Part shown: piece after piece, positions 470 to 31,041 of the stretch
How the letters are laid out: each line of letters opens with the position of its first letter
How positions within the stretch are numbered: position 1 is the first letter of the stretch
Source: Eledone cirrhosa
Taxonomy: Eukaryota
Assembly: GCA_964016885.1 (NCBI GenBank)
Contig: OZ024741.1
Location: 87,730,001-87,794,000 of the forward strand
DNA length: 64,000 nucleotides
Direction: 5' to 3'
The notes under the pieces: generated by a model
Told to the model about the DNA's origin: nothing
What the model saw: the letters and a program-made list of their open reading frames with translations, nothing else
Database searches by the model: none
Made by a program: the position numbers and the translations under genes

Positions 470-504
470 GTTTAAAATAGGGTGGAAAAGATGGGAAAGA
501 CCAC

Positions 505-2551: not shown

Positions 2552-2780
2552 GTTTTTTTTTTGTTTAAAATAAATATTGGGCACAAAACCCCAATAAGCG
2601 GTTATTTAACCCGAAGGGCCAAATAACGGGCAGAAAGACCCCTCTCACGAGGAGGAGGGTGTTTTTGTCTACAATTTGGTTAAAGTTTTAAACAATTTAC
2701 AATTGTTATAGCGGTCAAAATTTACAATACCTTACAGAGCCGAGCCTCCGTCAACCATAGCATTCAATAATAATAATAAT

Positions 2781-3440
2781 GTTTTCTTTATTAACCACAA
2801 GGGTTTACATAAAGTAGACATTAAAGACAGTACAGGACAATACAGGACGGTACAAATGGGCATTTCTGCATGTAAAAAAAACAGAGGATGTAATAAAATA
2901 ACAAAGAAAAATTCCCCAATAGGGGGGAGACTTCCGAGGGACATTTGTGGAGAAAGCCCATTAAAAGACCACAGTGACCCTGACCACCAGGGCAAGTGCC
3001 CTCTCCCAGTTTTCCACCTTTAATTTAGAGACACATACTCAGAGTAGGCCCATTCACTTAGGCTAAAGGAAGAGGGCGGGGAAATCCTCACGATGGACTC
3101 AGCTGATAGCTGGATCCGTCCTACACGTGACAGCAGGTGTTCGACATAAACCCACAAGTCAGCAATGCTCGGACACTGGACGAGTGCGTGCAGGATGGTT
3201 TCGTCGCCCTGCGCGCATCTCGGACATGCCCGGCTGACGGCACCTCCATGCCTGTAGAGTTTATCCCGAACTGGCAAAGCTCCCCGGTAGCACTGCCAGG
3301 CCAGGGATTTCTGGAAGTTGTCCATAGCCCCCGGCCCGAAAGTCCTTCCGAAGAGATTGGCTAGTTGATTTTCGTCGACGCCTAGAGTTTCTCCAAGTAC
3401 ATCGTCACTCTTCCCCTCCACTAATCCTCTATAGAACGCC
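2781..3440 (-). mobile_element. 5'-truncated Tx1 3' fragment with an internal deletion of about 220 bp
   Basis: Matches 11516-12389 (ORF2 C-terminal CPRC...H...C and the 3' UTR) but lacks about 11791-12008. Flanked by (AAT)n on both sides. Confidence 0.9.

Positions 3441-3536
<96 letters not shown>
3441..3536. repeat. (AAT)32 microsatellite, target or tail tract
   Basis: Read directly. Confidence 0.97.
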
Positions 3537-4705: not shown

Positions 4706-7700
4706 TCATGATAATAACAATTTAAAAAAACAACAAAAAGAAAACCCCGTGACCAAGAAATACCGGGATGGCGGCCGGCGGGGAATAGCCGTGTCTCTAG
4801 GGGAGAACGACCCCTCTAGTCTTGGTTGACACTCGTTCTAGAAGTGGTAACACGAAATGATTACCCCTTGGCGGATAAGGATAAAACGCGACAAAATAAA
4901 GTAAATGTCTAATGATAAAATCTCATTCCGGATCGGCCGTCACCCGGGTAAAAAAGGGCCGCGTCCCTCAGAGAGGAACCAGACTGGGGTCGAAAAATCA
5001 GCTAATGGTTCAAACCTTCCCATCACTTCGGAGCTGGAGACCTCCCATAACCGGAATACTCCTACTGTTGGCCCTCCATGCTCACCACCAAGAAATCCAA
5101 AGAAAAAGAGAGAAAAATGGTCAAGGGAAGATAATAAAGAAGTCCTTGAGGCTTTCTACACTGCCATGTACTACCCATCAAATACATCGAATACAGAACA
5201 GACATATATCAACTGGAAAAAGAAACATCCCGAAAACAGAGGCTATATTGACAATAACAAACTAGCCAATATACGAAGAAATATTGTAAGAAAAAAGTTA
5301 CTAACTGATATAGAAATTGATCAGATCAAGCTATTAGCACAAAGTCAGCGAAGGGAAAATGAAACATGTGTCAGTGAAAACGAGGTAAACTGTAACACTT
5401 CGAACCCCAGGGTTGGGGCGGAATCACTGGCAACAGAACAAATTAAAGAAAGGATCGAAAAAGTGGAGGGAGTGCATGCTCAGGATGAAACTCCAAATGA
5501 AAATAATGAGATCGTAAATGAGAATGAGCTTGCCAACTTGAAGGATGAAATTATGATCGAATGGATGAAAATGAAAGAATCTGACATGGGGCAACGAGAC
5601 ACCCTCCCTAAAATCCAGAACTCCAAACAGAACCAAAAGATAATACACAAGACTAACATAATTCTCAAAAACATTATCATCACAAACAAATTAAACATTA
5701 CTGATTTAAATCATCTCTATTATGCATCGGCTAAAGTCACCACTCACTTATGTGGAGGGAAGATGAAAAAACAAAGGAATTCCCACAAGAAATCTACTTG
5801 GCAAGAGAACATCAATCGCCAAATAAACCTTCTCCGATCTGACATAGAAATTTTAACAAACTATAAAGTAGGTGAACATGTTAAACAAACTAAACTTAGA
5901 AAATTGAAAAAAAAGTACAGTATAAAATCAACATGTGACATAGACATGCTGATAGAAATAATCAAGCAAAAAGTGTCGGCCAAAGCTGCTCGTATAAGGC
6001 GCTTTGAAAAACGATCTAGATTCTATAAGGACAATAATATGTTCAAAAACAACCAAAGAAACTTCTACAGAAAAATTGGTAAGTCAACAATAACTGCTAA
6101 ATCAATACCACCCAAGGAGGAAGTGCAAGAATTCTGGGAAAAGATCTGGGCCGAAGAAAAAGTTCATAACATACATGCCCCATGGATAGACAGACAAATG
6201 AAAGATACAGCTCACCTTGAGGAACAAACATGGGAAAATATAACAGTTGAACAGTTGCGCTTGGCTCTAAGAAAAACCAGCAAATGGAAATCCCCAGGAA
6301 AAGACAAAATACAAAACTTTTGGATAAATGCTTTCACAGTGTCTCATGAGCTGTTAGCCCAACTTTACAATGAAATAGTTAAGGAGCCAGAAAAGATACC
6401 ATCATGGCTAGTTAACGGCATTACATTCCTGCTTCCGAAGAATGATGAGACAAACAATCCCAAAAATTACAGACCGATAACTTGCTTGACCACAATGTAT
6501 AAAATTTTAACATCAGTCCTAACTGTACACATATGACCACCTGATAACAAATGACCTATTTCCCATTGAGCAGAAAGGGTGTAAACGAGGCTCATATGGC
6601 TGTAAGGATCAGCTTCTGGTTAACAAAATGATACTGGAATATTGTCATAATAGACACAAAAATCTATCGATTGTTTGGATAGATTATAAAAAAGCATTCG
6701 ATAGTTTGCCACACAGTTGGATTGAAAAATGTTTAGAGGATTTTCAAAATATCCCCCGTTGTCAGGAGGTTTTTGTCATTCAGTATGAAGACATGGAAAA
6801 CGACACTCCTTTTGAATAGTGAAACAAAATCACTGGAAGCTGGAGAAGTTAATATTAATTGTTGAATTTTTCAGGGTGACTCTTTATCACCGCTTTTATT
6901 CTGCATCGCACTTATACCATTAAGTAAAATGCTCAATGAAACAAAACATGGATATAAAGTCTATGACAAAACCATTAATCACCTGTTCTACATGGATGAC
7001 CTGAAACTATTTGCAAAAAATGATGAACAATTGCAAGGGCTATTATCCACTGTGAAGCAGTTCAGTGATGACATTAAAATGGAGTTTGGACTAGATAAAT
7101 GCGCCAAAGCAACGTTCACCAGAGGAAAGCTGCTGAAGAGTTCAGACATTAATCTTGATCGGGGGAACGTGATAAGAGAACTTGATCAAGAAAAAACTTA
7201 CAAATATCTAGGTGTTTGTGAAGGAGACGGAATCAAGCACTCGACAATGAGGGAAAGGATAAGGAAAGAATGTTACCGCAGAGTAAGAGCAATCTTAAGA
7301 ACGGAATTGAATGCAAGGAATAGGATCGATGCCATAAACACGCTTGCCATACCAGTAGTAACCTACAGTTACAATGTCATCAACTGGTCAAGCACAGAGA
7401 TCCGTAGGCTCGATACAAAAATTCGAAAATTCTTAACCATGCACAGAATGCATCACCCTAAGGCAGATATAGATAGAATATATCTCCCTAGGAAAGAAGG
7501 AGGACGTGGGTTAATCCAGTTAGACATTGCGTTGAAAACTGCAACAATTGGATTATCTACATATCTAAGGGAATCACATGATTGGATGATCAAACTCGTT
7601 TTGAAACACGAAAGCATCAAAAGATCATATTCCATTACAAAAGATGCACAAAGATACAGTAATGGACTACAAATTTCAGAAGTCCCATTTACTGCTGAAA

Positions 7701-8700
7701 TGGAAAACACAGAAAAAGCAAAGCAGGTAAAAGTAACTGCAAAGAAAGAACTGCTACAGAAACTGGCTAAGAAATGGCAAGAAAAGCCTCTGTATGGAAA
7801 ATACCCAGAGCGAGCTAACAATCCTGATGTTGACAAAACTTTAACCCATCAGTGGTTGGCATCCTCTGGACTGAAATCGGAGACTGAAGGACTGATTATA
7901 TCGGCACAAGATCAGTGTCTGCCAACAAAAAATTACCAAGCCAACATAATAAAAAATGGGTGCAGCCCATTATGCCGTGTATGCAAAAAACAACCAGAGA
8001 CCATTGACCATATAATTTCAATGTGCAGTCCTATAGCTCCAACCGAATACCTAAACAGGCATGACAGAGCTGCACAATACATACATTGGATAATGTGTAA
8101 GCATTTTGACCTGCCCCATCAAAAGAATTGGTGGGAGCATCAACCACCTCCCATACTTGAAAAAGATCACATCTCAATCTTGTGGAACTTTAGCATCCAA
8201 ACAGAACGAAAAATAGATGCAAATAGACCTGATATAATATTGAAGGACTTTCAAAAGAGGGTATGCCTGCTAATTGATATGTCTGTTCCAATAGACAAGA
8301 ATGTATCTATAAAAACATTTGAAAAATTGAGCAAGTATAAGGATCTGGAGATAGAAATTGGAAAAATGTGGAAATTGAGAACTAAAACAATACCAGTGGT
8401 TGTAGGCGCTCTGGGAATGATACCTAAGGGTCTAATGACTACTTATCGCAAATCCCAGGAAACCCGCGTATAGGAGAAATACAAAAGATAGTACTAATGG
8501 GAACTGCCCATATACTAAGGAAGATTCTGTCAATATAAGTACATCACAAGTCTAAACACTAAAGATGCATGTGTGAATATGTATGTTCTTTCTTGAACAT
8601 GGCGGACCTTGTTGTCTCTTGAGGTCACTGGTTGTGACTTGGTGATAACTCGTATGAACATAAAGCAAGATAAATGCAACTGTAATAATAATAATAATAA
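4706..8700 (+). mobile_element. R4/Dong-clade retrotransposon family A, near full length, with (TAA)n tail
   Basis: Single-ORF RT-RLE layout. The 3' UTR ends ...gataaatgcaactg then (TAA)n, the same as 18779. The 5' boundary is approximate. Confidence 0.9.
4905..8538 (+). pseudogene. Dong-A polyprotein: N-terminal Myb-like region, reverse transcriptase, CCHC finger and restriction-like endonuclease; disrupted
   Basis: KWSREDNKEVLEAFY; KSPGKDKI; NYRPITCL; IDYKKAFDS; LFYMDDLKLF; CRVCKKQPETIDHIISMC; RHD; RPDIILKD...LIDMSVP...KLSKY. Breaks near 6536, 6740, 6862 and 8430. Confidence 0.9.
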
Positions 8701-8707
8701 TGATAAT

Positions 8708-9029
8708 GTAAAAAGGATTTGGAATTGCCATGAAGGTAAAAAGGATTTGGAACTGCCATGAAGTCAAAGTGATCCCGATTGTCATAGGCGCACTAGGGAC
8801 TATCACAAAAAGTTTCCAGGGATGGTTAAAGAAAATTGGCCCCTTCACGCTTTTTGGAACGCTTCAAAAGGCATGCTTGCTGGGAACAGCAAGAACCCTC
8901 CGATACGTCCTGAATATCTGAGGCTGCAGGTAGTGGCTTGATATTCATTTCAACAAACTTTCCAGTTAACTAACATCAATGACTGAGACTCAAAGAGTAA
9001 TAACAATAATAATAATAATAATAATAATA
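8708..9029 (+). mobile_element. Dong-B 3' fragment with a duplicated 28-bp 5' end and tail
   Basis: VKRIWNCHEVKVIPIVIGALG...YVLNI* plus 3' UTR. gtaaaaaggatttggaaYtgccatgaag occurs twice in tandem. Confidence 0.88.
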
Positions 9030-11515
9030 ATGTTCGACAACAACCAGAAGATGCTGTTTGGACAGCTTGAAGGGAAAGAAAGAGGCAACGACTTGATCCC
9101 TGAGGCGGAACAAACTAAAACATTCTGGAGAGGAATATAGGAGCAGGATGTTAAACATAATGACCAGGCAGTGTGGATTGAGACAGTACAGAAGGAGATT
9201 AGTGAACAGGCATACCAACAAACTGATTTGAGTATCACAGTTGAAACTCTTAAGGGGCAGGCCAAAAAACTAACCAACTGGAAATCACCAGGCCCAGATG
9301 GTGTGCAGGGGTATTGGATTAAAAATATAACATCCCTCCACCCGAAACTGACAACCATGTTCAATGACTGCTTGATGTCAGGTGAGGTACCAGAGTGGTT
9401 GACAAAAGGTACCACAGTTCTGATAATGAAAGACCGAATCAAGGGTAATGATGTTACCAACTATAGACCTATCACATGTCTGTCCGTAATGTGGAAACTG
9501 TTGACAAGCATTATGTCTGAGGAAATCTACCATCACCTCCACACAAACAACTTGTTACCGGACGAACAGAAAGGATGCCGAAAGAAGTCACGTGGTACAA
9601 AGGACCAGTTACTTATTGATAAGATGGTAATGAGGAATTGTAAGAGGAGACACACTGGTCTTGCCATGGGATGGATAGACTACAAAAAGGCATTTGACAT
9701 GGTGCCTCATTCTTGGATCACCAAAAGCCTGGAGATCTTCAAGGTGGCAGATAACATCAGACAGTTGTTGGGCAAAAGTATGAAGTCCTGGGAAACAGAG
9801 TTAACATCAACTGGAGAATCCTTGGGAAGCGTGAAGATCAAGAGAGGTATCTTCCAGGGAGATAGTCTGTCCCCTCTGTTGTTTGTCCTTGTCCTGGTGC
9901 CCCTGACCAGTGTTGAGAGCAGGATACAGGTTGGGAAAGGGAGGGCTTACCTCAATCACCTCCTCTTCATGGACGATCTTAAGCTCTTCGGGAAGAGTGA
10001 GAAGGAGTTGGATGTGCTTGTTGACACTGTCCGTATTTTCACCAATGATATATGTATGCAATTTGGTATTAGTAAGTGTGGAGTCATTGTGATGAAGAAG
10101 GGTAAGTTGAGCAGAAGTAACGGAATCCAGGTACTAACGGGTGAGATGATAAAGGAAATTGACTCTGAAGAAGGATACAAGTATTTGGGCGTTCTGGAGG
10201 CTGATGACATCAAGAACAGAAAAATGAAGGAATTGATAAGAACTGAATACATTCGGAGAGTAAGGAGCGTATTAAAGTCACATCTGAACAGTAGGAATGC
10301 CATAAGTGCAGTAAATTCCCGAGCTGTGTCTATTATTAGGTACAGTGCGGGAATTCTGAGATGGAATGTTGCTGAACAGAAAGAAATGGATAGGAAGACT
10401 AGGAAGCTATTGACTATCTACAACATGTTCCACAAGAGGAGTGATGTCGATAGACTCTACTTAAGGAGATCTGAGGGTGGAAGAGGTCTTATCAGCATAG
10501 AGGACTGTGTTCAGATGGAGAAAAACAACCTACACAAATACGTGACTGATAGTAAGGAGCCAATGCTCAGAACTGTACTGAAGGAGGGGACAATAGGCCA
10601 GGGGATGTCCAAGGAGGAAATAACATCAAGGAGAAAGAGCAGCCTTCAGGAAAAATCCCTTCATAGTACCTTCTTTGAGAAAACTGAATTTAGAGATCCA
10701 CAGACACGGAACTGCTTGAAAAGAGGAGACCTTAAAAAGGCTACAGAAGGAATGTTAATGGCTGCGCATGAGCAGGCCCTTAAAACGAAGTGGTTGAAAC
10801 ACCATATTTACAAGGAGGAGGCTAGCCCACTGTGCAGGATCTGTGGAGAGAGAGAGGAGACTGTGGCTCACATTGTATCCGAGTGCAAACACCTAGCCCA
10901 GACTCACTATAAGGGCTGGAGACATGATGTGGTGGGCAGGGTGATCCACTGGCACCTGTGCAAAGTAAACAATTTACCACATTCTGAGAAGTGGTATGAG
11001 CATAGGCCAGAGGCGGTGATAGAGAACAATCAGGTGAAGGTGCTGTGGGATTTTAGGATACAGACGGACAAAAAACTGGAACACAATAGACCTGACCTGG
11101 TGGTTGTGGACAAAGAAAAATGATCGTGTCTGATTGTGGAAGTGGCCTGCCCTTTCGACACGAGAGTGCAAGAGAAGGAGAGGGAGAAAATTAATCGATA
11201 CCAGGACCTAAAGTGGGAGGTGAAAAGGATTTGGAACTGCCATGAAGTCAAAGTGATCCCGATTGTCATAGGCGCACTGGGGACTATCTCCAAAAGTTTC
11301 CAGGGATGGTTAAAGAAAATCGGCCCCTTCACGCGTTTTGGAACGCTTCAAAAGGCATGCTTGCTTGGAACAGCAAGAACCCTCCGATACGTCCTGAATA
11401 TTTGAGGCTGCAGGTAGTGGCTTGATATTCATTCCAACGGACTTTCCAGTTAACCAACATCAATGACTGAGATTCAAGGAATAACAACATTAATAATAAT
11501 AATAATAATAATAAT
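9030..11515 (+). mobile_element. Dong-B 5'-truncated copy (RT-RLE, with stop codons and a small deletion) plus tail
   Basis: ORFs 9171..11123 and 11136..11405: LLFMDDLKLF, CRICGEREETVAHIVSEC, RHD, RPDLVVVD. Starts at the position matching about 20054 of the full copy. Confidence 0.92.
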
Positions 11516-11758
11516 GTTTTCTTTATTAACCACAAGGGTTCACATAAAGTAGACATTAAGGACAGTACAGGACAATACAGGACGGTACAAAAGGGCATTT
11601 CTGCGTGTAAAAAAACAGAGCTTGAAATAAAATAACAAAGAAAAATTCCCCAATAGGGGGGAGACTTCCAAGGGACATTTGTGGAGAAAGCCCATTAAAA
11701 GACCACAGTGGCCCTGACCACCAGGGCAAGTGCCCTCTCCCAGTTTTCCACCTTTAAT

Positions 11759-14700
11759 TTACAGACACATACTCAGAGAAGGCCCATTCATTCGGGCCAT
11801 ACTTGCTTCTCTCACCCATCTTTCAACAAAATGCTGGGAAGAGAGCACTTCCCTCTCTACCCTGATTTTCCTTTTCAAATGAAATTTGAAAAAGTTAATC
11901 AGGGCATCACCGAAGAGGTAAGTGCTCGTCTTCAGCCCTTTCAAACGTGTCCACCATACTATCTCTTTCGCCATGGCCACCAGACAGATAAAAACTGCCT
12001 GCCCTTCCAGGCTAAAGGAAGGGGGCGGGGCAATCCTCACGATGGACTCAGCTGATAGCTGGATAGGTCCTACACGTGACAGCAGGTGTTCGACATAAAC
12101 CCACAAGTCAGCAATGCTTGGACACTGGACGAGTGCGTGCAGGACGGTTTCGTCGCCCTGCGCGCATCTCGGACATGTCCGGCTGACGGCACCTCCATGC
12201 CTGTAGAGTTTATCCCGAACTGGCAAAGCTCCTCGGTAGCACTGCCAGGCCAGGGATTTCTGGAAGTTGTCCATAGGCCCCGGCCCGAAAGTCCTTCCGA
12301 AGAGATTGGCTAGTTGATTTTCGTCGACGCCTAGAGTTTCTCCAAGTACGTCGTCGCTCTTCCCCTCCACTAATCCCCTATAGAACGCCAAGGTGGAGTT
12401 TCCACCGATCACATTGCCCGATTGGTCGAGGGCTGTGAGCGCCTGAAGACATTCCAGTCTCCAAGCGCTCCCTCTCGGTCTTCGCTTGACCCAGGACTGC
12501 AGCTCCGTCAAGGAGACGAGCTGGGGAAAAACGTGTCTTGCAAACGGCGACCACACCTGATCACCGTCGAGGAAGAGGTGGAGATGTCGTAGCCTGAGCG
12601 CGTGTCTGCGCATCATCAACCACGGCATGCCCATCCCTCCACGTAGCGGGTGTTGACAGCAGATGGACCGCCTGACCATCGGAGCGCGTCCCTTCCACAA
12701 GAAGCGAAAGAGCAAACGCTCCAGCGCAGTCAGGCGGGGCTTAGGACAAGGTACGACGGTCAGGCGGTAGTAGATGACGGATGCGATGTACGCATTCGCC
12801 ACCTCCGCTCGACCTTTCAGGGATAGCTTCCTCTCGGCCCATTTCTGGGTGAGAGAAGCCACCCTGCTCGTCACCTCGTCCCAGTTTTTGTCCGTCTGGA
12901 GGTCTGGACCGAACCAGACCCCTAGCAATTTAACAGGTCCGTCCGTCCAGCGCCCGACGACGCTGTTGGATGGCATGGACCTGCCTCTCCAGGTGCCGAG
13001 CTGCAGGCCCACTGACTTATCCTGGTTGATCATTGCTCCTGTCACCGCTTCGTATTCTCTTAGTGTAGTGCCGATCGCCTCGATGTGTTTGGCGTTCGAC
13101 ACCACTACGGTGACATCGTCGGCATATGCTGACACGGATCTTCCGCATCCTAGTTCGCGCGGGACCCCCCTCAACGTCTCCAGTTTGTGCAGTAATGGCT
13201 CGAGAGTCAATACGTACAATAGGGACGAGAGGGGACATCCCTGGCGGACCGAGCGCATGATGTTGAACGGTTCCGAAAGGTGACCGTTCACTCTCACTAC
13301 AGAGCAGATGTCGCTGTGCATGGCAGCGATCCAGCCTCTGAAGACGGGCCCAAAGCCAGCCGCCCTCAGGACTGCCGCTAGGTAACGATGGTCGACCCTA
13401 TCGAAGGCTTTCGACTGATCTAAATTGATCAAAGACCCACCCGTGCCAGGTTCCCTAGCTACCCTCTCTATGATGTATCGCATGAGGTGGAGGTTGTCGT
13501 GGATGGATCTATCGGGAATGGCGCATGTCTGTGCCTCTCCCACCAGACCACCAACGACAAGCGCCAACCTCTTTGCTAGCACCTTGGCCAAAATCTTGAA
13601 CTCTGTGTTTAGCAGAGTTATGGGCCTAAAATTATCTGTGTTATCCCCCTTGTTCGGATCCTTTCTCACCAGCGCCACCGCTCCTCGGCTCACAGAGCTG
13701 GGAATTCTCCCGTTCTGTTGCCAGTTGCAGTAGACGTCCGCCAAGAGGCCTCCGAACAAGTTTGGCATTTGTACTAAAGTTCATAGGGCAGACCATCCAA
13801 ACCAGGCGATTTACCCCTTGTGCAACTAGTCATTGCATCCCGTACTTCAGCGGTTGTTATCGTCTTTTCGCAACACTCCGCCTCAGTGGCCGAAAGCTGC
13901 GGCAGTCCGTCGAGGTAGACACTAAAGTCCATCCCTCGATCCGGCCCGCCACTGCCCCCGAACAGTTGAGCGAAGTGTCGCTGAAAAGCTTCACACATTT
14001 TCCCGGGATCGAGTAGCATGCGCCCGTCGTGGTCCATCAAAGACCGGATCGTGGATTTGTTGCCACGACGCGCCTCCGCCACTCGGGCCCATTGAACGGC
14101 TTTCGTCCCCTCGTGTCTGAGAGCACGCACCCTAGCTCTGACAACGCAGCCTTCGTGCTTTGCATTGAAGAATTGGTCAAGGGCCAATTTCGCCGCAAGT
14201 ACGTCGGTCGCGATGCCTTTGCTAAGCGCCTCATCTAATTTTCTAACTAATTCTTCCTCTGCTCTATTTTTCTCTATTGCTAAAGTCTTACTAAACCTAA
14301 TGGACTCTATTCTAATTGCTCTTTTCAGAGAAAACCACCACTTGTTGTTGACGATGGCCCCCGTCAACGCCCGCTTAACTAGTTCGCTAATCCGGTCTCT
14401 GTAGGCCTTGCGCGCTGGTAAGGACGCGTTTAGCTTCCAGTAGCCGGGTCCTCGTCTATAAAGCCTATCTAAGTCAAGCACACAGATCACGAATTTGTGG
14501 TCCGTGTAGCTGACTATCTTGAATTGTGGACAGCCTATGCTAGACCTATCTATTTCCCTACAAAATACTCTATCTAGATATGATCTGGATGACCCTATGC
14601 GATTTGTCCAAGTCCACATTGGTACATTCGGGAAATCCATTCGGTACCTGTCAGACAGTTCAAAACGTCTGAGCAGGTTGGTGAGACTCTTGCACCCTCC

Positions 14701-15177
14701 TTCCCTATCCACTAATCCCACACAATCCCAGCGTGCATCTAAGATCCCGTTCCAGTCGCCCACTAACACTAAAGAGCGGGACGTTCCAAGAAAGGTCTCC
14801 AGACGCCGGAAGAAATCAGGCCGCCCTGCTCCTGTTGGGGCATAGACGGCCACTAACCTGAAAGCTTGCCCGTCTCCGCTGGTCACGTCCAGCACCACCA
14901 ACTTACCTTCTGGGTCCAGGAAGATGGCCCGTATGGCAAGATCCAAACCTCTCCGAAAAAGCACAGCAACTCCTCCCCCCGATCCCGGACGGCTGGGAGA
15001 TGCGTACACATCGTAGCCGCCGAAGATCGGTGCGAAAGCCTGTGTTTCGGAGATTCTGGTCTCGCTGATGGCCACTACATCTATGTTTAGTGACCTGAGG
15101 TCGTTGAGCAGGTGGCCCTGCTTCCATGACGACCCCAAGCCACGCGCATTTATGCTGCCTATTCTGAGTGAGGTCAT
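11759..15177 (-). pseudogene. Tx1 ORF2: APE endonuclease, reverse transcriptase and C-terminal zinc finger; one 1-nt frameshift near 13774
   Basis: ORFs 13774..15177 (SINARGL, GDWN, SYLDR, TDHK) and 11759..13768 (NFRPITLLN, DQSKAFDRV, RQGCPLS, AYADD, CPRC...H...C). Confidence 0.93.
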
Positions 15178-15211
15178 GTTGAAAAGGAGTGGAAAAGATG
15201 GGAAAGACCAC

Positions 15212-17208
15212 TTACCTTACTTCTCGTAGGGGAAGGACGGCTTTTCCATCCTTTTCACTGCTTGTGGCCTCCTCAGGAAGGATGTCCTTATAAATCCTCC
15301 TGGAGAGTGCTTGTCGGAAGTCTCCGATGTCTTTGGGGAATTTTTGTTTTAGTGTCATGTACGTTTTCTGTGTGATGCGAGTGATTTGTATGTGTGGCGC
15401 TGGTGTGAATTTTGGGGTTGTTGTGTAGTCTTTTTCTGTGATGCTGGTGTTGTGTTGGATGTAGTATAATAATTGCTTGTTGTTCAAATTTAATGCTGTG
15501 TAGTGTGTATCGTTTTGGTTGTTTTGTTTTGTTTGCGTTTGTTGTGGGTTTGTTTCTGTTTCGCATTTTGGTGACTTTTGTGGTGTAGGTGATGGTGGTG
15601 CTGGGGATAATGATGGTGATGGTGTTGGTGTTTGGGTTGATGGGGTTGGTGATGCTGGTGTGGATGGTGGCATATCTGTCCTAACTTTTTTGTTTCTTAG
15701 TTTATTTGTTTCCCTCTGTATTTTGTTTTTGGAGGGGGAAGGAAGAGAATTTTTTCTTTTTTGGTTTCTTTTTTTTTTCCGGATATCGTTTCCCACTCCT
15801 CGTCGTCACAATCTGTCTCCAGTTGTGATAGGCCGGGGAGTGGAAAATCCTCCACAGCCGTTAGTTTTGGTTGTGGTGTGGTGGATGGTGTAGGCGCTGG
15901 TGCTAGTTCTGAAGCGTTGGGTGGTGGTGGTGTTGGTTTTGCTGGTGGTGGTAGTGGTGTTGGTTTTGCTACTGTTGCTGGGGTTGTTGCTGTTATAGTT
16001 GCTTCTGTTGTTGCTGCTACAGTTGTTGCTGCCATCTCTGCTACTGGTGGTGTTGATGGTTGTGTCACTGGGGTGGGTAGGAGAGGTGGCCTCAACCTTT
16101 TAGCCTGAGGGCAGAAAGCCCTTAGGTGGGTTCCTTCACCACAAACGACACACCTAGGTCTTCTGCCCTCGACAATTACCGTGAGGTGGCTGCCGTCAGT
16201 GAGGTCTATTACCTCTGGGATCTCCTCAATGCTTTTTTGGTCCGCTTGGATCAGGAGCTCCATCCCAGATCCGGACCAGTTTTCCTGCTTTTCTTTTGCT
16301 ACTGCTATTATTTTCGTGTTGGCTTCGATGCCAGCGAGGACAGCCGCTATTAGCCAGGGAATTTCGATGGCCGGTGGAACGTGGGTCACCCTGATCTTTA
16401 CGAGTCTCTGGCCACAATAGCTTGGGACGAGTGTGAGGTCGTCACTTTTTAATGGGGCCATGGAGTGTTCTCTAGCCTCCTCTGGTGTTTCGAAGAACAC
16501 ATCCACGGTTCCATACTTTTGCCCACGTCTGATGTGGGTTTTTCTTGCCCACACATGTCCCAAAGCTTTTTGGATTTGGGACTCGGATGCCCGTTCCACT
16601 CGGCGCGATTTTACATTTATTGTTCTATACGACACGGTGCACAGGCGCCGATGCTCCATTTTATTAGGTGGGGGGGTGAGGCTGACCCTGTACCCATCTT
16701 TCTTTACCATTTGTTTGGCATTTTCTAAATCTTCTTGAGTTACCGTGAACGCTTCGAATTGTTTTGCTACGATGGCGAAACTGAGGGTCGGTTTTATAAT
16801 GTCATTGTTGTTGTTGTTGCTATCGTTAATATTAATTTTATTTTCAGTTGTGGTGGTGGTGACGTCAGTCGTCTTTGGTGGGGAAGAGTCCATTTTGCTT
16901 GATTTCATTTCGACATCACGAGTTAATTTATTTTTTTCTTCTTTTGTTTCTGTTGTCGCGGTGGTGGTGGTGGTGGTGGTGGTGGTGGTTGTCGCGGTGG
17001 TGGTGGTGGTGGTGGAGGCTTTAACACCTGCAGTCATTGGTAATGGCGGGAAATGAATGTCTGCCTGAGACAAATTTAAAATATTGCTACTGCTTATATT
17101 TTTTTTTGTGTTGGCAAACGTAGTAACATTTACAATGGTGGTGTCGGTGTGAGGTGTTATTTTGTGAGGAAGGCTTTCAGCTGCTTCGTGCAGAGGTGAA
17201 GTAGCCAT
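15212..17208 (-). pseudogene. Tx1 ORF1 (gag-like with CCHC knuckle); one frameshift in an A-run near 15780
   Basis: ORFs 15697..17259 and 15212..15796. Knuckle CVVCGEGTHLRAFC. Likely start MATSP at 17208. Confidence 0.85.
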
Positions 17209-17417
17209 TTTTTTTTCAAAGAAATTTTTGATAATAATAAAAGTTAAAATTTTGGGCACAAGGCCCCAATCTTTTTAGGTGTCCTTTTCGGAAAACAATG
17301 TATGTGTGCTTATAAACAGTTAACAATAAAATTTTCCATAAATGGCAATTTTTAAACAAACGGAAATAACAAACCTTTGCGGAGCTCACGATAATACGAT
17401 TTCCTACGTAGGTCGCC

Positions 17418-17477
<60 letters not shown>

Positions 17478-17480
<3 letters not shown>

Positions 17481-18777
17481 TGGTCAAGCACAGAGATCCG
17501 TAGGCTCGATACAAAAATTCGAAAATTCTTAACCATGCACAGAATGCATCACCCTAAGGCAGATATAGATAGAATATATCTCCCTAGGAAAGAAGGAGGA
17601 CGTGGGTTAATCCAGTTAGACATTGCGTTGAAAACTGCAACAATTGGATTATCTACATATCTAAGGGAATCACATGATTGGATGATCAAACTCGTTTTGA
17701 AACACGAAAGCATCAAAAGATCATATTCCATTACAAAAGATGCACAAAGATACAGTAATGGACTACAAATTTCAGAAGTTCCATTTACTGCTGAAATGGA
17801 AAACACAGAAAAAGCAAAGCAGGTAAAAGTAACTGCAAAGAAAGAACTGCTACAGAAACTGGTTAAGAAATGGCAAGAAAAGCCTCTGTATGGAAAATAC
17901 CCAGAGCGAGCTAACAATCCTGATGCTGACAAAACTTTAACCCATCAGTGGTTGGCATCCTCTGGACTGAAATCGGAGACTGAAGGACTGATTATATCAG
18001 CACAAGATCAGTGTCTGCCAACAAAAAATTACCAAGCCAACATAATAAAAAATGGATGCAGCCCATTATGCCGTGTATGCAAAAAACAACCAGAGACCAT
18101 TGACCATATAATTTCAATGTGCAGTCCTATAGCTCCAACCGAATACCTAAACAGGCATGACAGAGCTGCACAATACATACATTGGATAATGTGTAAGCAT
18201 TTTGACCTGCCCCATCAAAAGAATTGGTGGGAGCATCAACCACCTCCCATACTTGAAAAAGATCACATCTCAATCTTGTGGAACTTTAGCATCCAAACAG
18301 ACCGAAAAATAGATGCAAATAGACCTGATATAATATTGAAGGACTTTAAAAAGAGGGTATGCTTGCTAATTGATATGTCTGTTCCAATAGACAAGAATGT
18401 ATCTATAAAAACATTTGAAAAATTGAGCAAGTATAAGGACCTGGAGATAGAAATTGGAAAAATGTGGAAATTGAGAACTAAAACAATACCAGTGGTTGTA
18501 GGCGCTCTGGGAATGATACCTAAGGGTCTAATGATTACTTATCGCAAATCCCAGGAAACCCGCGTATAGGAGAAATACAAAAGATAGTACTAATGGGAAC
18601 TGCCCATATACTAAGGAAGATTCTGTCAATATAAGTACATCACAAGTCTAAACACTAAAGATGCATGTGTGAGCATGTATGTTCTTTCCTGAACATGGCG
18701 GACCTTATTGTCTCTTGAGGTCACTGGTTGTGACTTGGTGATAACTCGTATGAACATAAAGCAAGATAAATGCAACT

Positions 18778-18832
<55 letters not shown>
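17478..18832 (+). mobile_element. Dong-A 5'-truncated copy plus (TAA)n tail
   Basis: Near-identical to 7382-8683 (ORF 17535..18569). Preceded by (AAT)20 at 17418-17477. Confidence 0.92.
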
Positions 18833-18835
<3 letters not shown>

Positions 18836-21800
18836 AATAATAACAATGAAACTTATGCTTATTCATTTTGGGGGCCCTTTCTGCCCGTGTGTTTGTTTGT
18901 TTATGTGTGTCCGTATACAGCGTGGTGATAATGCCACACAAGGGCCAAGTGGGATGGCGGATCCACAGATGGCTATGTAAACATACATTCGCCAATCCTC
19001 GATAAGAGTGTTTAAATATCGAACATAAACAGTTCGAATAACGGTGAAATGGAGACTAGAACGTCATGTGACAGACTCTCACCCAACAGGTGCCCCCTGG
19101 CTCAGCAGCAGGAACCTGACTGTCAACCAAATACTGCTGATGTTGGAGGAAGAAGAAGAAGGAAAGGGGCCAGAACCAACTGGACGAAAGAATTGAATAG
19201 AACTGTTATGCAATGCTACCTGAAAAGTAACCCCAAGGAGAGGGGCTACAGGAGACGGATGCATAACATCTGGAACGAGATTGGTTTATTTAAATTAGAT
19301 GAACAAAAATTGGCCGGGCAGGCTCGGGTAATAAGAACTAATGGGTGGATAAGCGAGCTGGAACTGGAGGAACTGAGCAGAGAGAATGGCTTGGAGATGG
19401 CGGGTGTAGTATGCCAGACAAGCGAGCCGGCGGGAAATGAAGGTGAGGAGGTCCTGAGAACGGAGGAACCACCCGAAGCAGACAATGATCTGAATACTGA
19501 GATAAATAATACCTGGAACAGAGATACGGCCACTGAGGAGATGAATGCTGACGGGCTAGGACAAGATTCGGTTGACATCCTAAATTTAGTGGTAGATGAG
19601 TTGAACAATGATAGTGGGAGACCTATGAACCTAAGATTTGTAGACAGGAAAAAGTTAAAAGAAACAACAGCTAAGGTAAACAAAGTCATCCCATACCTTG
19701 AGGCGAGGAGTCTTCACCAGTGCAACAATATCCTCAAAGCAACAGCAAATACGGTGAGGAAACTACTTGGTATAAAAGCGAGAGGAAACAACAGACAAGA
19801 AAGAGCAGAGCCGTGATGGAAGAAGCGACTGAGTGGGCAAATCGGGGAAATGAGAAATGACATAGGAAAGCTTGAGTCACTACTGAATGGGACACTAAAA
19901 AACATAGGCACTAAAAATAGACTGGAAATAAAATACAAAACTAGGAGTAAAAAGCTAAATATTATCATAGAGGAATTGAAGCAACGCATTGTAGCAAAGA
20001 GTGCCAAAATCAGGCGATACGAGAACAGAGTCAGTCAGTATAAACAGAACCGCATGTTCGACAACAACCAGAAGATGCTGTTTGGACAGCTTGAGGGGAA
20101 AGAAAGAGGCAACGACTTGATCCCTGGGGCGGAACAAGCTAAAACATTCTGGAGAGGAATATGGGAGCAGGATGTTAGACACAATGCCCAGGCAGGGTGG
20201 ATTGAGACAGTACAGAGGGAGATCGGTGAGCAGGCACAGCAACAGACTGATTTGAGTATCACAGTTGAAACTCTTAAGGGGCAAGCCAAAAAACTAACCA
20301 ACTGGAAATCACCAGGCCCAGATGGTGTGCAGGGGTATTGGATTAAACATTTAACATCCCTCCACCCGAAGCTGACGGCCATGTTCAATGACTGCTTGGT
20401 GTCGGGTGAGGTGCCAGAGTGGTTGACAAAAGGTACCACAGTTCTGATAATGAAAGACCGAATCAAGGGTAATGATGTTACCAACTATAGACCTATCACA
20501 TGTCTGCCCGTAATGTGGAAACTGTTGACGAGCATTGTGTCTGAGGAAATCTACCATCACCTCCACACAAACAACTTGTTGCCGGACGAACAGAAAGGAT
20601 GCCGAAAGAAGTCACGTGGTACAAAGGACCAGTTGCTTATTGATAAGATGGTAATGGGGAATTGCAGGAGGAGACACACTGATCTTGCCATGGGATGGAT
20701 AGACTACAGAAAGGCATTTGACATGGTGCCTCATTCCTGGATCACCAAAAGCCTGGAGATCTTCAGGGTGGCAGATAACATCAGACAGTTGCTGGGCAGG
20801 AGTATGGGGTCCTGGGAGACAGAGTTGACATCAACTGGAGTATCCTTGGGAAGCGTGAAGATCAAGAGAGGTATCTTCCAGGGAGATAGCCTGTCCCCTC
20901 TGTTGTTTGTCCTTTCCCTGATGCCCTTGACCATTATGCTGCGAAAAGTGAGAGCAGGATACAAGTTGGGAAGGGGAGAGCTTACCATCAATCACCTCCT
21001 CTTCATGGACGATCTTAAGCTCTTCGGGAAAAGTGAGAAGGAGTTGGATGTGCTTGTTGACATTGTCCGTATTTTCAGCAGTGATATATGTATGCAGTTT
21101 GGTATTGGTAAATGTGGAGTCATTGTGATGAGGAGGGGTAGGTTGAGCAGAAGTAACGGGATCCAGATACCAACAGGTGAGATGATAAAGGAAATTGACT
21201 CTGAGGAAGGATACAAGTATTTGGGCGTTCTGGAGGCTGATGGCATAAAGAACAAAAAAATGAAGGAATTGTTAAGAACTGAATACATTCGGAGAGTAAG
21301 GAGCGTATTGAAGTCACATCTGAACAGCAGAAATGCCATAAGCGCAGTAAATTCCCGAGCTGTGTCTATTATTAGGTACAGTGCGGGAATTCTGAGATGG
21401 AATGTTGCTGAACAAAAAGAAATGGATAGGAAGACTAGGAAGCTATTGACTATCTACAACATGTTCCACAAGAGGAGTGATGTCGATAGACTCTACCTAA
21501 GGAGATCTGAGGGTGGAAGAGGTCTTATCAGCATAGAGGACTGTGTTCAGATGGAGAAAAACAACCTATACAAATACGTGACCTATAGTAAGGAGCCAAT
21601 GCTCAGAGCTGTACTGAAGGAGGGGACAGTAGGCCAGGGGATATCCAAGGAGGAAATAACATCAAGGAGGAAGAGCAGCCTTAAGGGAAAATCCCTTCAT
21701 AGTACCTTCTTTGAGAAAACTGAATTTAGAGATCCACAGACATGGAACTGGTTGAGAAGAGGAGACCTCAAAAAGGCTACAGAAGGAATGCTAATGGCTG

Positions 21801-22527
21801 CGCAGGAGCAGGCCCTCAAAACGAAGTGGTTGAAGCACCATATCTACAAGGAGGAGGCTAGCCCACTGTGCAGGATCTGTGGAGAGAGAGAGGAGACTGT
21901 GGCTCACATTGTGTCCGAGTGTAAACACCTAGCCCAGACCCACTATAAGGGCTGTAGACACGATGTGATGGGCAGGGTGATCCACTGGCACCTGTGCAAA
22001 GTAAACAATCTACCACATTCTGAGAAATGGTATGAGCATAGGCCAGAGACGGTGATGGAGAACAGTCAGGTGAAGGTGCTGTGGGATTTTAGGATACAGA
22101 CGGACAAAAAACTGGAACACAATAGACCTGACCTGGTGGTTGTGGACAAAGAAAAAAGATCGTGCCTGATTGTGGATGTGGCCTGCCCGTTCGACACGAG
22201 AGTGCAAGAGAAGGAGAGGGAGAAAATTAACCGATACCAGGACCTAAAGTGGGAGGTGAAAAGGATTTGGAACTGCCATGAAGTCAAAGTGATCCCGATT
22301 GTCATAGGCGCACTGGGGACTATCTCCAAAGGTTTCCAGGGATGGTTAAAGAAAATCGGCCCCTTCACGCTTTTTGGAACGCTTCAAAAGGCATGCTTGC
22401 TTGGAACGGCAAGAACCCTCCGATACGTCCTGAATATCTGAGGCTGCAGGTAGTGGCTTGATATTCAATCCAACGGACTTTCCAGTTAACCAACATCAAT
22501 GACTGAGATTCAAGGAATAACAATAAC

Positions 22528-22587
<60 letters not shown>
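18833..22587 (+). mobile_element. Dong-B apparently full-length element plus tail
   Basis: 5' UTR, long RT-RLE ORF, short 3' UTR ending gattcaagg, then (AAT)n. Confidence 0.93.
19049..22441 (+). pseudogene. Dong-B polyprotein (about 1130 aa) with a single in-frame TGA at 19814
   Basis: ORFs 19049..19816 and 19850..22441 are in the same frame (EP*WKKR, probably Trp). NWTKELNRTVMQCY Myb-like region, FMDD RT motif, CCHC finger and PD..D endonuclease. Confidence 0.92.
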
Positions 22588-22591
<4 letters not shown>

Positions 22592-25146
22592 GAGGAACTG
22601 AAGCAACGCATTGTAGCAAAGAGTGCAAAAATCAGGCGATACGAGAACAGAGTCAGTCAGTACAAACAGAACCGCATTTTCGACAACAACCAGAAGATGC
22701 TGTTTGGACAGCTTGAGGGGAAAGAAAGAGGCAACGACTTGATCCCGGGGGCGGAGCAAACTAAAACATTCTGGAGAGGAATATGGGAGCAGGATGTTAG
22801 ACATAATGTCCAGGCAGGGTGGATTGAGACAGTACAGAGGGAGATCGCTGAGCAGGCACACCAACAAACTGATTTGAGTATCACAGTTGAAACTCTTAAG
22901 GGGCAGGCCAAAAAACTAACCAACTGGAAATCACCAGGCCCAGATGGTGTGCAGGGGTATTGGATTAAAAATTTAACATCCCTCCACCCGAAGCTGACGG
23001 CCATGTTCAATGACTGCTTGGTTTCGGGTGAGGTGCCAGAGTGGTTGACAAAAGGTACCACAGTTCTGATAATGAAAGACCGAATCAAGGGTAATGATGT
23101 TACCAACTATAGACCTATCACATGTCTGTCCGTAATGTGGAAACTGTTGACGAGCATTGTGTCTGAGGAAATCTACCATCACCTCCACACAAACAACTTG
23201 TTACCGGACGAACAGAAAGGATGCCGAAAGAAGTCACGTGGTACAAAGGACCAGTTACTTATTGATAAGATGGTAATGGGGAATTGCAGGAGGAGACACA
23301 CTGATCTTGCCATGGGATGGATAGACTACAGAAAGGCATTTGACATGGTGCCTCATTCTTGGATCACCAAAAGCCTGGAGATCTTCAGGGTGGCAGATAA
23401 CATCAGACAGTTGCTGGGCAGGAGTATGGGGTCCTGGGAGACGGAGTTGACATCAACTGGAGTATCCTTGGGAAGCGTGAAGATCAAGAGAGGTATCTTC
23501 CAGGGAGATAGCCTGTCCCCTCTGTTGTTTGTCCTTGCCCTGATGCCCTTGACCATTATGCTGCGAAAAGTGAGAGCAGGATACAAGTTGGGAAAGGGAG
23601 AGCTTACCATCAATCACCTCCTCTTCATGGACGATCTTAAGCTCTTCGGGAAAAGTGAGAAGGAGTTGGATGTGCTTGTTGACACTGTCCGTATTTTCAG
23701 CAGTGATATATGTATGCAGTTTGGTATTAGTAAATGTGGAGTCATTGTTATGAGGAGGGGTAGGTTGAGCAGAAGTAACGGGATCCAGATACCAACAGGT
23801 GAGATGATAAAGGACATTGACTCTGAGGAAGGATACAAGTATTTGGGCGTTCTGGAGGCTGATGGCATAAAGAACAAAAAAATGAAGGAATTGTTAAGAA
23901 CTGAATACATTCGGAGAATAAGGAGCGTATTGAAGTCACATCTGAACAGCAGAAATGCCATAAGCGCAGTAAATTCCCGAGCTGTGTCTATTATTAGGTA
24001 CAGTGCGGGAATTCTGAGATGAAATGTTGCTGAACAAAAAGAAATGGATAGGAAGACTAGGAAGCTATTGACTATCTACAACATGTTCCACAAGAGGAGT
24101 GATGTCGATAGACTCTACCTAAGGAGATCTGAGGGTGGAAGAGGTCTTATCAGCATAGAGGACTGTGTTCAGATGGAGAAAAACAACCTATACAAATACG
24201 TGACCTATAGTAAGGAGCCAATGCTCAGAACTGTACTGAAGGAGGGGACAGTAGGCCAGGGGATGTCCAAAGAGGAAATAACATCAAGGAGGAAGAGCAG
24301 CCTTAAGGGAAAATCCCTTCATAGTAACTTCTTTGAGAAAACTGAATTTAGAGATGCACAGACATGGAACTGGTTAAGAAGAGGAGACCTCAAAAAGGCT
24401 ACAGAAGGAATGCTAATGGCTGCGCAGGAACAGGCCCTCAAAACGAAGTGGTTGAAGCACCATATTTACAAGGAGGAGGCTAGCCCACTGTGCAGGATCT
24501 GTGGAGAGAGAGAGGAGACTGTGGCTCACATTGTGTCCGAGTGTAAACACCTAGCCCAGACCCACTATAAGGGCTGGAGACACGATGTGATGGGCAGGGT
24601 GATCCACTGGCACCTGTGCAAAGTAAACAATTTACTACATTCTGAGAAATGGTATGAGCATAGGCCAGAGGCGGTGATGGAGAACAATCAGGTGAAGGTG
24701 CTGTAGGATTTTAGGATACAGACGGACAAAAAACTGGAACACAATAGACCTGACCTGGTGGTTGTGGACAAAGAAAAAAGATCGTGTCTGATTGTGGATG
24801 TGGCCTGCCCTTTCGACACGAGAGTGCAAGAGAAGGAGAGGGAGAAAATTAACCGATACCAGGACCTAAAGTGGGAGGTGAAAAGGATTTGGAACTGCCA
24901 TGAAGTCAAAGTGATCCCGATTGTCATAGGCGCACTGGGGACTATCTCCAAAAGTTTCCAGGGATGGTTAAAGAAAATCGGCCCCTTCACGCTTTCTGGA
25001 ACGCTTCAAAAGGCATGCTTGCTTGGAACAGCAAGAACCCTCCGATACGTCCTGAATATCTGAGGCTGCAGGTAGTGGCTTGATATTCATTCCAACGGAC
25101 TTTCCAGTTAACCAACATCAATGACTGAGATTCAAGGAATAACAAC

Positions 25147-25699: not shown

Positions 25700-28600
25700 A
25701 GAAGACATAGCAACCTCATTGCAGATTAACCCCCAGGCTGAATTGTCAGCTGGGTGGCAATCTCATTTTTCGCCCCCACAGGGGCAAAAATTTAATTTAA
25801 AAACACTGTCCAAAAATGTTTAATATTTTGCCATCAACAATGGCTAGCGTACAAGGAACGCTAGCGAACGTTGAGGAAGGAAAAAGAAAGAGTGAAATAG
25901 ACTTTAACGTTGATATGTGCTCTGCCTGTATCAATGTAGCTGACAACAAAGTTTTGTTTCACGAAAGTGAAGTATACAATAAAAACAAAATTGAACTACA
26001 CAGTGTACAACAGACACCAAAAGACAACAGAAAATATAACAATTGACAAAACTACAAACGGAAAAACTGACAACCACAACAACAACAACACAAAAAAATC
26101 TTTTACAGAAACAGTCACAAATGAAATGGATTTTAAGGTTACCTCAAACTCTGCATGTATCGGCGTCACTATGGAAGCCAATAAGGACAACAAGGTTTTG
26201 TTTCACGAAAATGATGTATGTAATAAAAACAAAATTGAACCACACAGTGTACAACAGACACCAAAAACAACAGAAAAAAACAACAGAAAATAAAACAACT
26301 GACACAACTACAAACGGAAAAACCGACAACCACAACAACAACAACAACACCAAAAAAATAACTTTTCTACAAACAGTCATGAACAAACAAGATTTCAAGG
26401 ATCTCGATATCTCCAATGCGAGACAGATGCTCTCTGAAGCAAAGGAGTTTATAATTTTCGTAGAAAACGGTGGATTTAAAATAAACTCACTCCCAGAAAT
26501 TCGTCTTGAAACACTTCGAAGGACAGTTCCCTTCTGAACTGTTTTAAACGAAACAAGAAAACCGGCATTCGTCAGTCAAGGGGAAATTGAAGCAACCTTG
26601 AAGGAGATATTGCCAAACATAGACTTTATGCAGAGGGTCAAACAGTGTGGGAGTATTTCGGTACTCCTCAAAAGCGAGGCCCTCGCACAAAAATATTCCG
26701 TGACACCAATACTGTCAAAAAAATACACCTTTTTCCCTACATACCTGGGAAAAAAGAACTAAAAAAATAAAAATTACCAACATACCACCAAAAATTAATA
26801 TTTGGTGGATATTGGCAGGTTTTTTAGAGGAGGGACCGGACACCATTCTCTCTACCAAGAAGTCAACCCGACACACGTGGTCTGGTACAAATTTGGAGAT
26901 TCTAGTTCAAATGAGGCTGGAGAGAATCTCCAAAATAACCGAAAGCGTGCTGGTCGACAACAACAGCCACATCAACATTTCGACAGAAGGAGGAAGACCA
27001 CACTGCTTCCGATGTAACTGTACATCGCATCTAAAGGCCTCCTGCCCTTTACAGACACATTTTTAAAAAACAACCCCCCAAAAATACTGTTACCAACACC
27101 ACCACAACAACAACAACACACAAAACAAGCAAACGCACCAAAACAAACAGCCACTCAACCAACAACAGCAGGAAAAACACAAACAACTCCCCCGAAGAAC
27201 ACAGTCCCATCCCATCCCACTCCATCCAACACTGCCACAAACACACACACAAACACACCATCACCACATAACATACTCCCACCGCAAACTCCTGATGACG
27301 AATCATCGTCAGACGAGGCTACTTCTTCATCCCCAAGTGAAGATGAAGGACAGCCTCGAAAATAAAAAAAAACAAAAAAAGAGGCACCGCAAAGCCACAA
27401 AATCAACAATCACCAACACCAACACACAACCACCGACACAAACAACAACACAAACAACACCACAATCACCCCCCCCCCCCCCTATCAGCAAAACAAACAC
27501 CAACACCAACCCAAACACAAGCACCCACCATAAAAAGAAAACTCCCGGACGAACAACAAACTAGAACAACACAACAAAAACACAAACAACAATACGCATA
27601 CATCAACACCAACATCAAGAATTTGATGGAGGTCATCTCCAAAAACCCCAAGTTGGAGGAGACGGAGGGTAAAACTTTCGTTAAAGCAGAATCGTCTCCA
27701 CACCTCAAACTGATAAGAGTTTCCATGGAAACATATAGCGAACTAAAAACTGAATTTTCGCAGGACGTGGGCAACCCCTGTAAAAAAAACCATAAACCGC
27801 GTCCTGTTAAAATGTTTCCCCACCCCACCAACACCCCCACCAGCACCCAAATGGAGATTGAACAACCCGATCTCCAGGAAACGAAAAGGTAAGGGCACCT
27901 TTTCGTCCTTTTTCGCCAACTCTTCTCCACCAACATGGCTAATTTACGAGTTGGACGCGTGAATGTGATGGCCTAGGGATGCCCTGGGAACAGAGCCAAC
28001 TTTTAAACGACCTTAGGTCACGCGGTATGGATGTGATAGCATCACCGAGTCCAGGATCCACAACAGGCAGCAACTAACCCCCATCTTCAATGACTTTGAG
28101 ATCTACGCATCTCTCTGTCAACCAGGAGGTGGAGGGGGAGTGGCTGTCATGTTTCGGAAAAACCTGGACCTCGAAGTACAGCAAGTACACTTGGACCCGG
28201 AGGATAGACTGGTAGTCCTAGACGTGAACAGTGTTGGAGGTGGAGCCTTCAGACTGGTGGCCGTTTATGATCCGACTGGGCAATCGCGGCCAGACTTCTT
28301 TAAGCGTCTAGAGTCTTTTCTGGGAACGTCTCTCTCCTTGCTGTTAGTGGGGGACTGGAATGGTATCCTTGACGCACGATGGGACTATGTAGGATCACAT
28401 CCCAGTAGAGGGGGGTGCAACAGCCTCAAAAGTTTAATCGGCCAATTCCAACTGGCCGATAGATATCGACTGGATTTCCCGACTGCACCACGGTGGACGT
28501 GGACAAACTTCAGCGGGATATCTAGATCGTATTTACACAGGTTCTTTGTTAGAGAGAGAGAGACAAGAAGATGTTAAGCTGTCCACAAATGCACATTGTT

Positions 28601-30888: not shown

Positions 30889-31041
30889 TGAGTTCAAATC
30901 CAGCCACGGTTAGCCATGCCTTCCATCATTACGGGGTCTATAAAATAAAGTATCAATAACGCACTGCAGTCGATTTAATCGACTTTCTCCCTCCCTTTTC
31001 CTTTCAAATTGCTGGTCTTGTGCCACAAAGTAGAAACAATT
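30889..31041 (+). mobile_element. tRNA-derived SINE (octopus-type), 5'-truncated
   Basis: B-box gagttcaaatc plus the ...cggggtc(g)ataaaataaagta... core shared with many copies in the window. Confidence 0.75.

Follow-up and report, generated by a model that had tools for sequence, protein, structure and literature searches.

Among the described systems that come closest to the element studied here, the long terminal repeat (LTR) elements of the Ty1/Copia type express a GAG-only mRNA that is spliced via a conserved U1 site (PMC5580714). In EVD of Arabidopsis and in Drosophila copia a conserved U1-type donor follows the structural gene and the unspliced RNA is the template; the intron of Drosophila copia, roughly 3 kb long, covers the enzyme genes, and termination takes place at the normal 3′ end (PMC5580714). 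Splicing is thought to be harmful to L1-group long interspersed elements (LINEs) (PMC5860796). The own RNA of human L1 has functional donors and acceptors, and its splicing events, within the 5′ untranslated region (UTR) or between the 5′ UTR and the first open reading frame (ORF1), have left the retrocopies called SpIREs (PMC5860796). HAL1, an ORF1-only product of an L1-group element, exists as amplified genomic families (PMC5753468). The Drosophila elements TART and HeT-A, telomere-specific and of jockey type, are non-LTR elements with spliced transcripts, the TART introns lying in antisense RNA (PMC1636488). The present analysis concerns a stretch of 64,000 nucleotides of Eledone cirrhosa (assembly GCA_964016885.1, contig OZ024741.1, positions 87,730,001–87,794,000, hereafter the window), and in it a full-length L1-group, Tx1-like LINE, copy b, located at 11512–17417 on the minus strand with (ATT)n at either end. 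The clade to which this copy belongs keeps a strong U1-type splice donor at the end of ORF1, by which the inter-ORF spacer and the second open reading frame (ORF2) may well be spliced out of part of the RNA. We give this reading, made from sequence, a probability of about one half.

If splicing were confirmed, the element would work like the U1/splicing switch of copia. The two differ in that a Ty1/Copia element has a single GAG-POL frame, in which splicing is needed to stop GAG, whereas here ORF1 has its own stop, the acceptor varies across families and splicing is predicted only. The element is not a SpIRE, its donor being at the end of ORF1 and no retrocopy having been found, nor is it a HAL1, since there is no ORF1-only family with this junction. 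HeT-A is itself an ORF1-only element. A full-text search of the literature, a coverage that leaves out most subscription papers and the Repbase reports, brought up no paper in which a Tx1 or L1 element is described with a donor at the ORF1 end or with ORF2 enclosed in an intron. A paper on O. vulgaris describes 13 recently active L1-Tx1 families and contains the term "splic" 0 times in the text available (PMC13282606), and the same term led to no passage on Tx1 RNA splicing in the excerpts of the paper on the Tx1-clade elements Kibi and Koshi (PMC4494074).

The junction between ORF1 and ORF2 was read from natural copies of 11 lineages across the 3.0 Gb assembly (a/b, c, d and so on to m, which are labels of the present analysis), lineages i and k being represented by one copy each and m by two tandem copies. 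The donor AG/GTAAGT, or its variants GTGAGT and GTAGGT, was present at the end of ORF1 in 11 of 11 lineages (a/b, c, d, f, g, h, i, j, k, m). The earlier note on this DNA had read GTA AG/G TAA GT in copy b (donor AAG/GTAAGT, which overlaps the ORF1 stop, at 15210–15218, minus strand, intron G at 15215), GTA CG/G TAA GT in copy a (ACG/GTAAGT at 503–511, minus strand, intron G at 508) and AAA AG/G TAA GG in a decayed family-c copy (27886–27894, plus strand, intron G at 27889), and these readings are correct. Its finding of a donor at the ORF1 end in three copies with very different ORF1s extends to the 11 lineages. Two of its points need correction: copies a and b are near-identical base for base over the spacer and ORF2 and are not independent of each other, and GTAAGG is a private change of the c copy, GTAAGT being found in 25 of 30 family-c loci. 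The lineages that are independent of a/b are families c, d, f, g, h, i, j, k and m.

The phase of the donor, judged from the open-frame lengths, is 2 in a/b, c, i, j and m, 1 in d, g and h, where ORF1 ends with GK and the stop, and 0 in f and k, where the ORF1 frame reads through the motif. The stop within the donor may be TAA, TAG or TGA, with GTGAGT (TGA) in family i and GTAGGT (TAG) in family m. With three phases and three stop codons, the donor is not explained by the stop codon alone. In six aligned families, AGGTAAGT is the sole invariant block near the junction, its flanks being invariant at only 15 of 90 columns, and the chance expectation of AGGTAAGT within a 50-nt spacer is 0.0008. 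Three substitutions, all compatible with the consensus, were counted over the 8 donor sites versus 12.6 expected at the mean ORF2 rate (P ~0.0015, a rough estimate). Against the genome's own U1 genes the copy b donor shows 8 matches out of 11 and ranks first among 291 GT sites; in six of seven families the U1-pairing rank is 1 of 288–319 GT sites, and in family a it is 2. Two ORF1 homologues, GAB1605864.1 from Argonauta hians and an ENA record, have the ends EGKS-stop and QGK-stop, compatible with a phase-1 donor as far as the proteins alone can tell. These observations support a conserved U1-type 5′ splice site which is kept as nucleotides, independently of the reading frame. Single copies having lost the donor through short deletions were also seen (L283, L315 and L316).

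The motif lies 28–46 nt before the ORF2 ATG and adjoins a pyrimidine-rich spacer in every family, as would be expected if it served, in the RNA, to signal the termination of ORF1 and the reinitiation of ORF2, or else to bind a protein, and resembled a donor by coincidence. This is improbable, as ORF1 reads through the motif in f and k, and the tolerated variants GTGAGT, GTAGGT and CG/GT are those of the 5′ splice-site consensus.

The earlier note had paired the donor with an acceptor in the 3′ UTR, from 15215 to 11601, placing all of ORF2 inside one intron. The donor is the real and unexpected feature of the pair; the acceptor at 11601 is private to one family. The segment 11601–11647 (minus strand) is made of a U-rich tract, the TTTACACG motif (11604–11611) and a CAG with its G at 11601, the AG being found in a/b only. 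The putative last exon would cover 11512–11600, with a new stop at 11540–11542 and AATAAA at 11522–11527. The pyrimidine tract followed by CAG/A is present at 11601 and at 2866 as had been described; the latter, taken for the second 3′ end, belongs to a separate a/b-family end at 2777–3442 (minus strand), 5′-truncated and internally deleted, which lies upstream of copy a and is not part of it. By a simple pyrimidine heuristic, 11601 is the first-ranked of 125 YAG sites in family b. The joined frame indeed keeps the arginine and continues with a tail of 20 residues, R-NALLYRPVLSCTVLNVYFM and the stop. The CAG was kept in 86 of 91 a/b 3′ ends, the other five having come from a search for exceptions. 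Both forms of the new stop, TGA (27) and TAA (53), occur among these 91 ends, but this is variation inside one young family, and older a/b variants carry TCA at this position or frame-shifting repeat changes. The tail is retained in most a/b copies and not beyond this young family.

The 3′ UTR parts common to the families are a hairpin, the U-rich tract, TTTACWCG and CCCTTGTGG-AATAAA. The hairpin, CCCC-TATT-GGGG (11648–11661, minus strand, inside the proposed 15215–11601 intron), has four pairs, two of which show a two-sided change between families; the fold of the whole 3′ UTR of family b is no better than that of shuffled sequences (z −0.33). Sister families retain the U-tract and TTTACACG without the AG. 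From the hairpin to AATAAA there is no AG in families g, i and m, nor in the usual family-c 3′ end. On contig C27 (L085, L086 and L087) the final 96 nt of an a/b 3′ UTR are amplified in tandem, and each unit begins ~10 nt before the equivalent of 11601.

A second candidate acceptor is the ORF2 stop codon. The stop of copy b is TAA (11759–11761, minus strand), and TAA was found in 52 of 52 a/b ends. In 13 of 14 3′-end types the homologous position is TAG, within YTRTAG, and in most of them a G and then a stretch rich in purines come next. Family a/b, which is nested in the tree of this genome's elements, is also the sole lineage with the CAG at 11601. The ORF2-stop TAG ranks 5–14 of 104–122 YAGs in five families with the pyrimidine heuristic. 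Just upstream of it are T-ending Pro and Ser/Thr codons, a pattern found in 2 of 189 adjacent four-fold pairs. When the donor is joined to this TAG, the ORF1 frame reaches a stop 0–3 codons further on in types d, e, f, g, h, j2, k and m. A stop at most 3 codons after the join was found in 8 of 11 types in the ORF1 frame, compared with 6 of 22 when the other frames are read and a background of 0.14 at random YAGs (Fisher p 0.017, in a test designed post hoc). Between family f and families g and h, the donor phase and the position of the stop after the join are each shifted by one base. It is plausible that the ORF2-stop TAG was the older acceptor and that a/b alone has lost it; this is a lead, not proof.

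The claim that ORF2 lies inside an intron survives in an altered form: the donor is conserved, and the ORF2 stop is the likely older acceptor. Use of the exact 15215–11601 intron in vivo appears to us to fall a little short of an even chance. It is possible, with the odds somewhat against it, that in the clade as a whole ORF2 is a stop-to-stop intron, with its donor in the ORF1 end, its acceptor in the ORF2 stop and a fresh stop of the ORF1 frame immediately after, the acceptor of one family having been replaced by that at 11601.

Genomic copies of spliced RNA were searched for in the assembly. The exact 15215/11601 junction gave 0 matches, against 2,561 exact matches to the 18-mer of the unspliced ORF1 end of family b and 7,485 to the 25-mer of the acceptor, which sets an upper bound of ~0.04% of 3′ ends for family b processed copies. 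Patterns for an ORF1b end that does not continue with GTA, which skip joins having C at +15, gave 0, 1 and 1 matches, and both matches are deletions. Twenty-eight matches to the last exon with foreign sequence upstream included none joined at a donor. In family d, the nine variant matches were six point variants and three unrelated repeats, with 0 spliced copies, and family g gave 0 processed versus 334 unspliced copies. Junctions at the ORF2 stop were searched in c and in f/g, with 0 copies in each (families h, i, j, k and m were outside this search). Among 77 family-c matches, the 25 inspected were 20 point variants, four unrelated sequences and one deletion, without a splice join; 21 further ones were point variants, judged by the matched letters.

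Several candidates were rejected. L317 and L368 are microhomology deletions rather than splice products, as is L088:3-1615, a candidate ORF1-only copy in which the deletion starts within ORF1 and stops 4 nt short of the acceptor. In L365, a family-c ORF1 end joined into ORF2, the join is one G short of an exact splice and was not counted. The 25 matches obtained when looking for retrocopies spliced at the 5′ UTR donor were all point variants. Among the 15 joints listed, of 594 in four contig sets, none was the predicted one; as contig depth gives no ranking of the parts, this weighs neither for nor against splicing. At the protein level, two word-index searches with the ORF1 ends gave no match for a spliced C-terminus. 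The NALLYRPV tail was absent from 12 proteins with the C-terminal domain, none of them close to family b, among the matches listed (the best 150 of 906 at E ≤ 0.001). The ends of two RefSeq models, XP_036364761.1 and XP_014781783.1, differ and are not traceable to DNA. Metagenome and viral contigs gave no confirmed loci of distant relatives.

Only unspliced RNA has left genomic copies. The mobile ORF1-only derivatives imagined in the earlier note are excluded in this assembly for this junction; splicing as such is not thereby excluded, because a spliced RNA lacks ORF2 protein (ORF2p) in cis and L1 proteins favour their own RNA (PMC5860796). Stringent LINEs recognize a stem-loop (PMC3472496), which could add to the immobility of a spliced a/b RNA.

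The lack of processed copies in families b, d and g, and among the matches inspected in c, nevertheless weighs against splicing, given that spliced retrocopies of human L1 amount to ~2% of its full-length copies (PMC5860796), and other observations point in the same direction. The conservation of the Y-tract-CAG that had been anticipated across subfamilies, where the donor is kept, fails in c, d, g, i and m; in family d there is no AG at the equivalent of 11601 in 30 of 30 loci, TTTACACGCAC replacing ...GCAG. YTRAY is the branch-point consensus. No such motif exists within 60 nt of 11601, a weak argument since metazoan branch points are degenerate. The proposed intron has a GC content of 54%, and the acceptor ranks come from a home-made heuristic, not from a trained splice model. 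As for the ORF2 stop, the p value of the post hoc frame test rises from 0.017 to 0.14 once related types are pooled. The join adds 27–32 residues in c and i and meets no stop within 260 nt in j1. The retention of TAG alone is not significant, two-fold codons being invariant 45% of the time, and the loss of TAG with the gain of CAG is a single event. Lastly, bicistronic LINEs gain an excess of ORF1 protein (ORF1p) through inefficient translation of ORF2, which makes the need for splicing less than clear.

Part of this evidence bears on the main alternative, less likely than splicing, in which U1 snRNP (small nuclear ribonucleoprotein) binds the donor but acts mainly without splicing. U1 would keep the A-rich ORF1 from being cleaved and polyadenylated prematurely, or aid elongation or export, and so favour full-length RNA; the CAG at 11601 would be an AG that happens to follow a U-rich element of the 3′ UTR. 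This alternative agrees with a conserved donor facing a non-conserved 11601 acceptor, with the absence of processed copies, and with an AATAAA that lies within ~0.3–0.5 kb on the upstream side of the donor in families a, b, c, f, g and h, six of the seven. A second donor-like site without spliced retrocopies, AAG/GTTTGT at 17369–17377 (minus strand), 43 nt from the 5′ end of copy b, is also in its favour; most families have an equivalent site between +23 and +43. The HIV-1 major donor likewise silences an upstream poly(A) site. In EVD, donor-bound U1 blocks premature termination (PMC5580714). Family d, however, has neither AATAAA nor ATTAAA in ORF1, and family b has neither in ORF2. Protection by U1 also leaves unexplained why the ORF2 stop resembles an acceptor, why the in-frame tails are short and why the sole lineage devoid of the TAG has the top-ranked CAG. 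The 5′-end site itself occurs in families with unrelated 5′ UTRs (also at the 5′ ends of L190, L199, L297, L300 and L303); families c and h have GTAAGT there and family g has GTGAGT, the site is weaker in a, b and f, and none was seen in d.

The donor could also be joined to an acceptor within ORF2, or to one outside the element, in the next tandem copy or in a host exon. YAGs are kept in six of six families at donor +1879, +2696, +2720 and +2839, and synonymous conservation is raised at donor +2726–2822 (z 3.77). A weak candidate, TTTYCCNCAG, is present in six of six families at 12521–12530 (minus strand), beside the marginally raised conservation. The permutation p is only ~0.045, recombination could be the cause, no retrocopies with such joins exist and the frame of the product varies between families, all of which makes such an acceptor quite improbable. 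The segment 12390–12530 (minus strand), in which synonymous conservation is raised in six families, is possibly a block that has recombined, or one that an RNA element overlaps. An intron of only 52 nt (15215–15164) would fuse ORF1 in frame to ORF2, since in a/b the first AG past the pyrimidine spacer joins in frame. We rejected this as highly improbable: the fused RNA would encode the reverse transcriptase (RT) in cis and copies would be expected, of which 0 exist, and the phase-1 and phase-0 families are out of frame.

We propose the following model for splicing of ORF2. U1 would bind the donor at the ORF1 end and splicing would follow, yielding an ORF1-only mRNA, while the unspliced RNA alone would be copied into the genome. 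The acceptor would in most families probably be the ORF2 stop (YTRTAG/G), ORF1p being left almost unchanged by the usual early stop. In a/b, the TAG would have changed to TAA and the CAG at 11601 would be used instead. Spliced RNA would not be retrotransposed, because there would be no ORF2p in cis and, for a/b RNA, no 3′ UTR hairpin either. Should ORF2 be a stop-to-stop intron in the clade as a whole, splicing would switch the reverse transcriptase on or off, and a non-LTR element would have arrived independently at a copia-like strategy. The genome has thousands of young copies, so that the splice ratio would decide the amount of RT made, and part of the LINE expression reported in octopus tissue could be RNA that is ORF1-only and non-mobile. 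That a perfect donor was kept at the ORF1/ORF2 boundary through frame shifts and stop changes implies that the recruitment of U1 benefits the element, via splicing or via protection of the transcript.

The ORF1 of copy b (15212–17208, minus strand) encodes ZCCHC3-like RNA-binding domains and a CCHC knuckle, and is frameshifted at the A-run 15763–15780. The CxxC-H-C pattern is invariant in the protein alignment across families, which are only 27–55% identical in ORF1; zf-CCHC was detected in two of seven members (best E 0.0046), and Atlas matches to zf-CCHC and ZCCHC3 RBD clusters (score 0.91–0.94) are a lead only. Named ORF1 homologues come from Octopus and Argonauta. The spacer (15178–15209, minus strand) is pyrimidine-rich and differs in sequence between families. 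ORF2 (11759–15177, minus strand) encodes an APE endonuclease, an RT and a zf-RVT domain (PF03372, PF00078, PF13966); it has 1139 amino acids in intact copies, is broken in copy b by the loss of 1 nt near 13774, and has human L1 ORF2p as best PDB match (E 5e-52). The nucleotide identity of ORF2 among six aligned families is 70–90%. The domains of ORF1 and ORF2 fit the Tx1 clade, with an RT tree of elements of this genome only and with no named Tx1 reference among the matches. Kibi and Koshi similarly combine an endonuclease-RT-zinc ORF2, a CCHC ORF1 and insertion into microsatellites (PMC4494074); the targets differ, being here (ATT)n and (TCTA)n. The same paper takes a repeat in >20% of flanks as its criterion of target preference; here one of the two repeats borders the copies read, be it as tail or as target, and tandem arrays are common.

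The family of copy b is young, neighbouring copies being ~98–99% identical. Copy a (1–2765, minus strand), cut by the start of the window, has another ORF1 type with the same spacer and ORF2, and the decayed family-c copy has no 3′ UTR within the window. A sister group (c and i–m; window 25700–30900, L189–L208 and L395–L403) ends in and inserts into (TCTA)n and not (ATT)n, a target switch within the clade. Head-to-tail arrays of full-length units, with a period of 5.84–5.9 kb and (ATT)n between units, were seen at G000:C1:423365583-423418122 and C1:66402378-66414202, with 10 family-g units, and family g has many intact ORF1 frames of 642 amino acids. L170, L304, L395 and L413 are mosaics of the ORF1 or donor of one family and the 3′ end of another, and point to recombination between families. 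At 4905–11123 and 17412–24706, several copies of two further RT elements are nested in the same (ATT)n tracts, the window being a pile-up of microsatellite-targeted retroelements.

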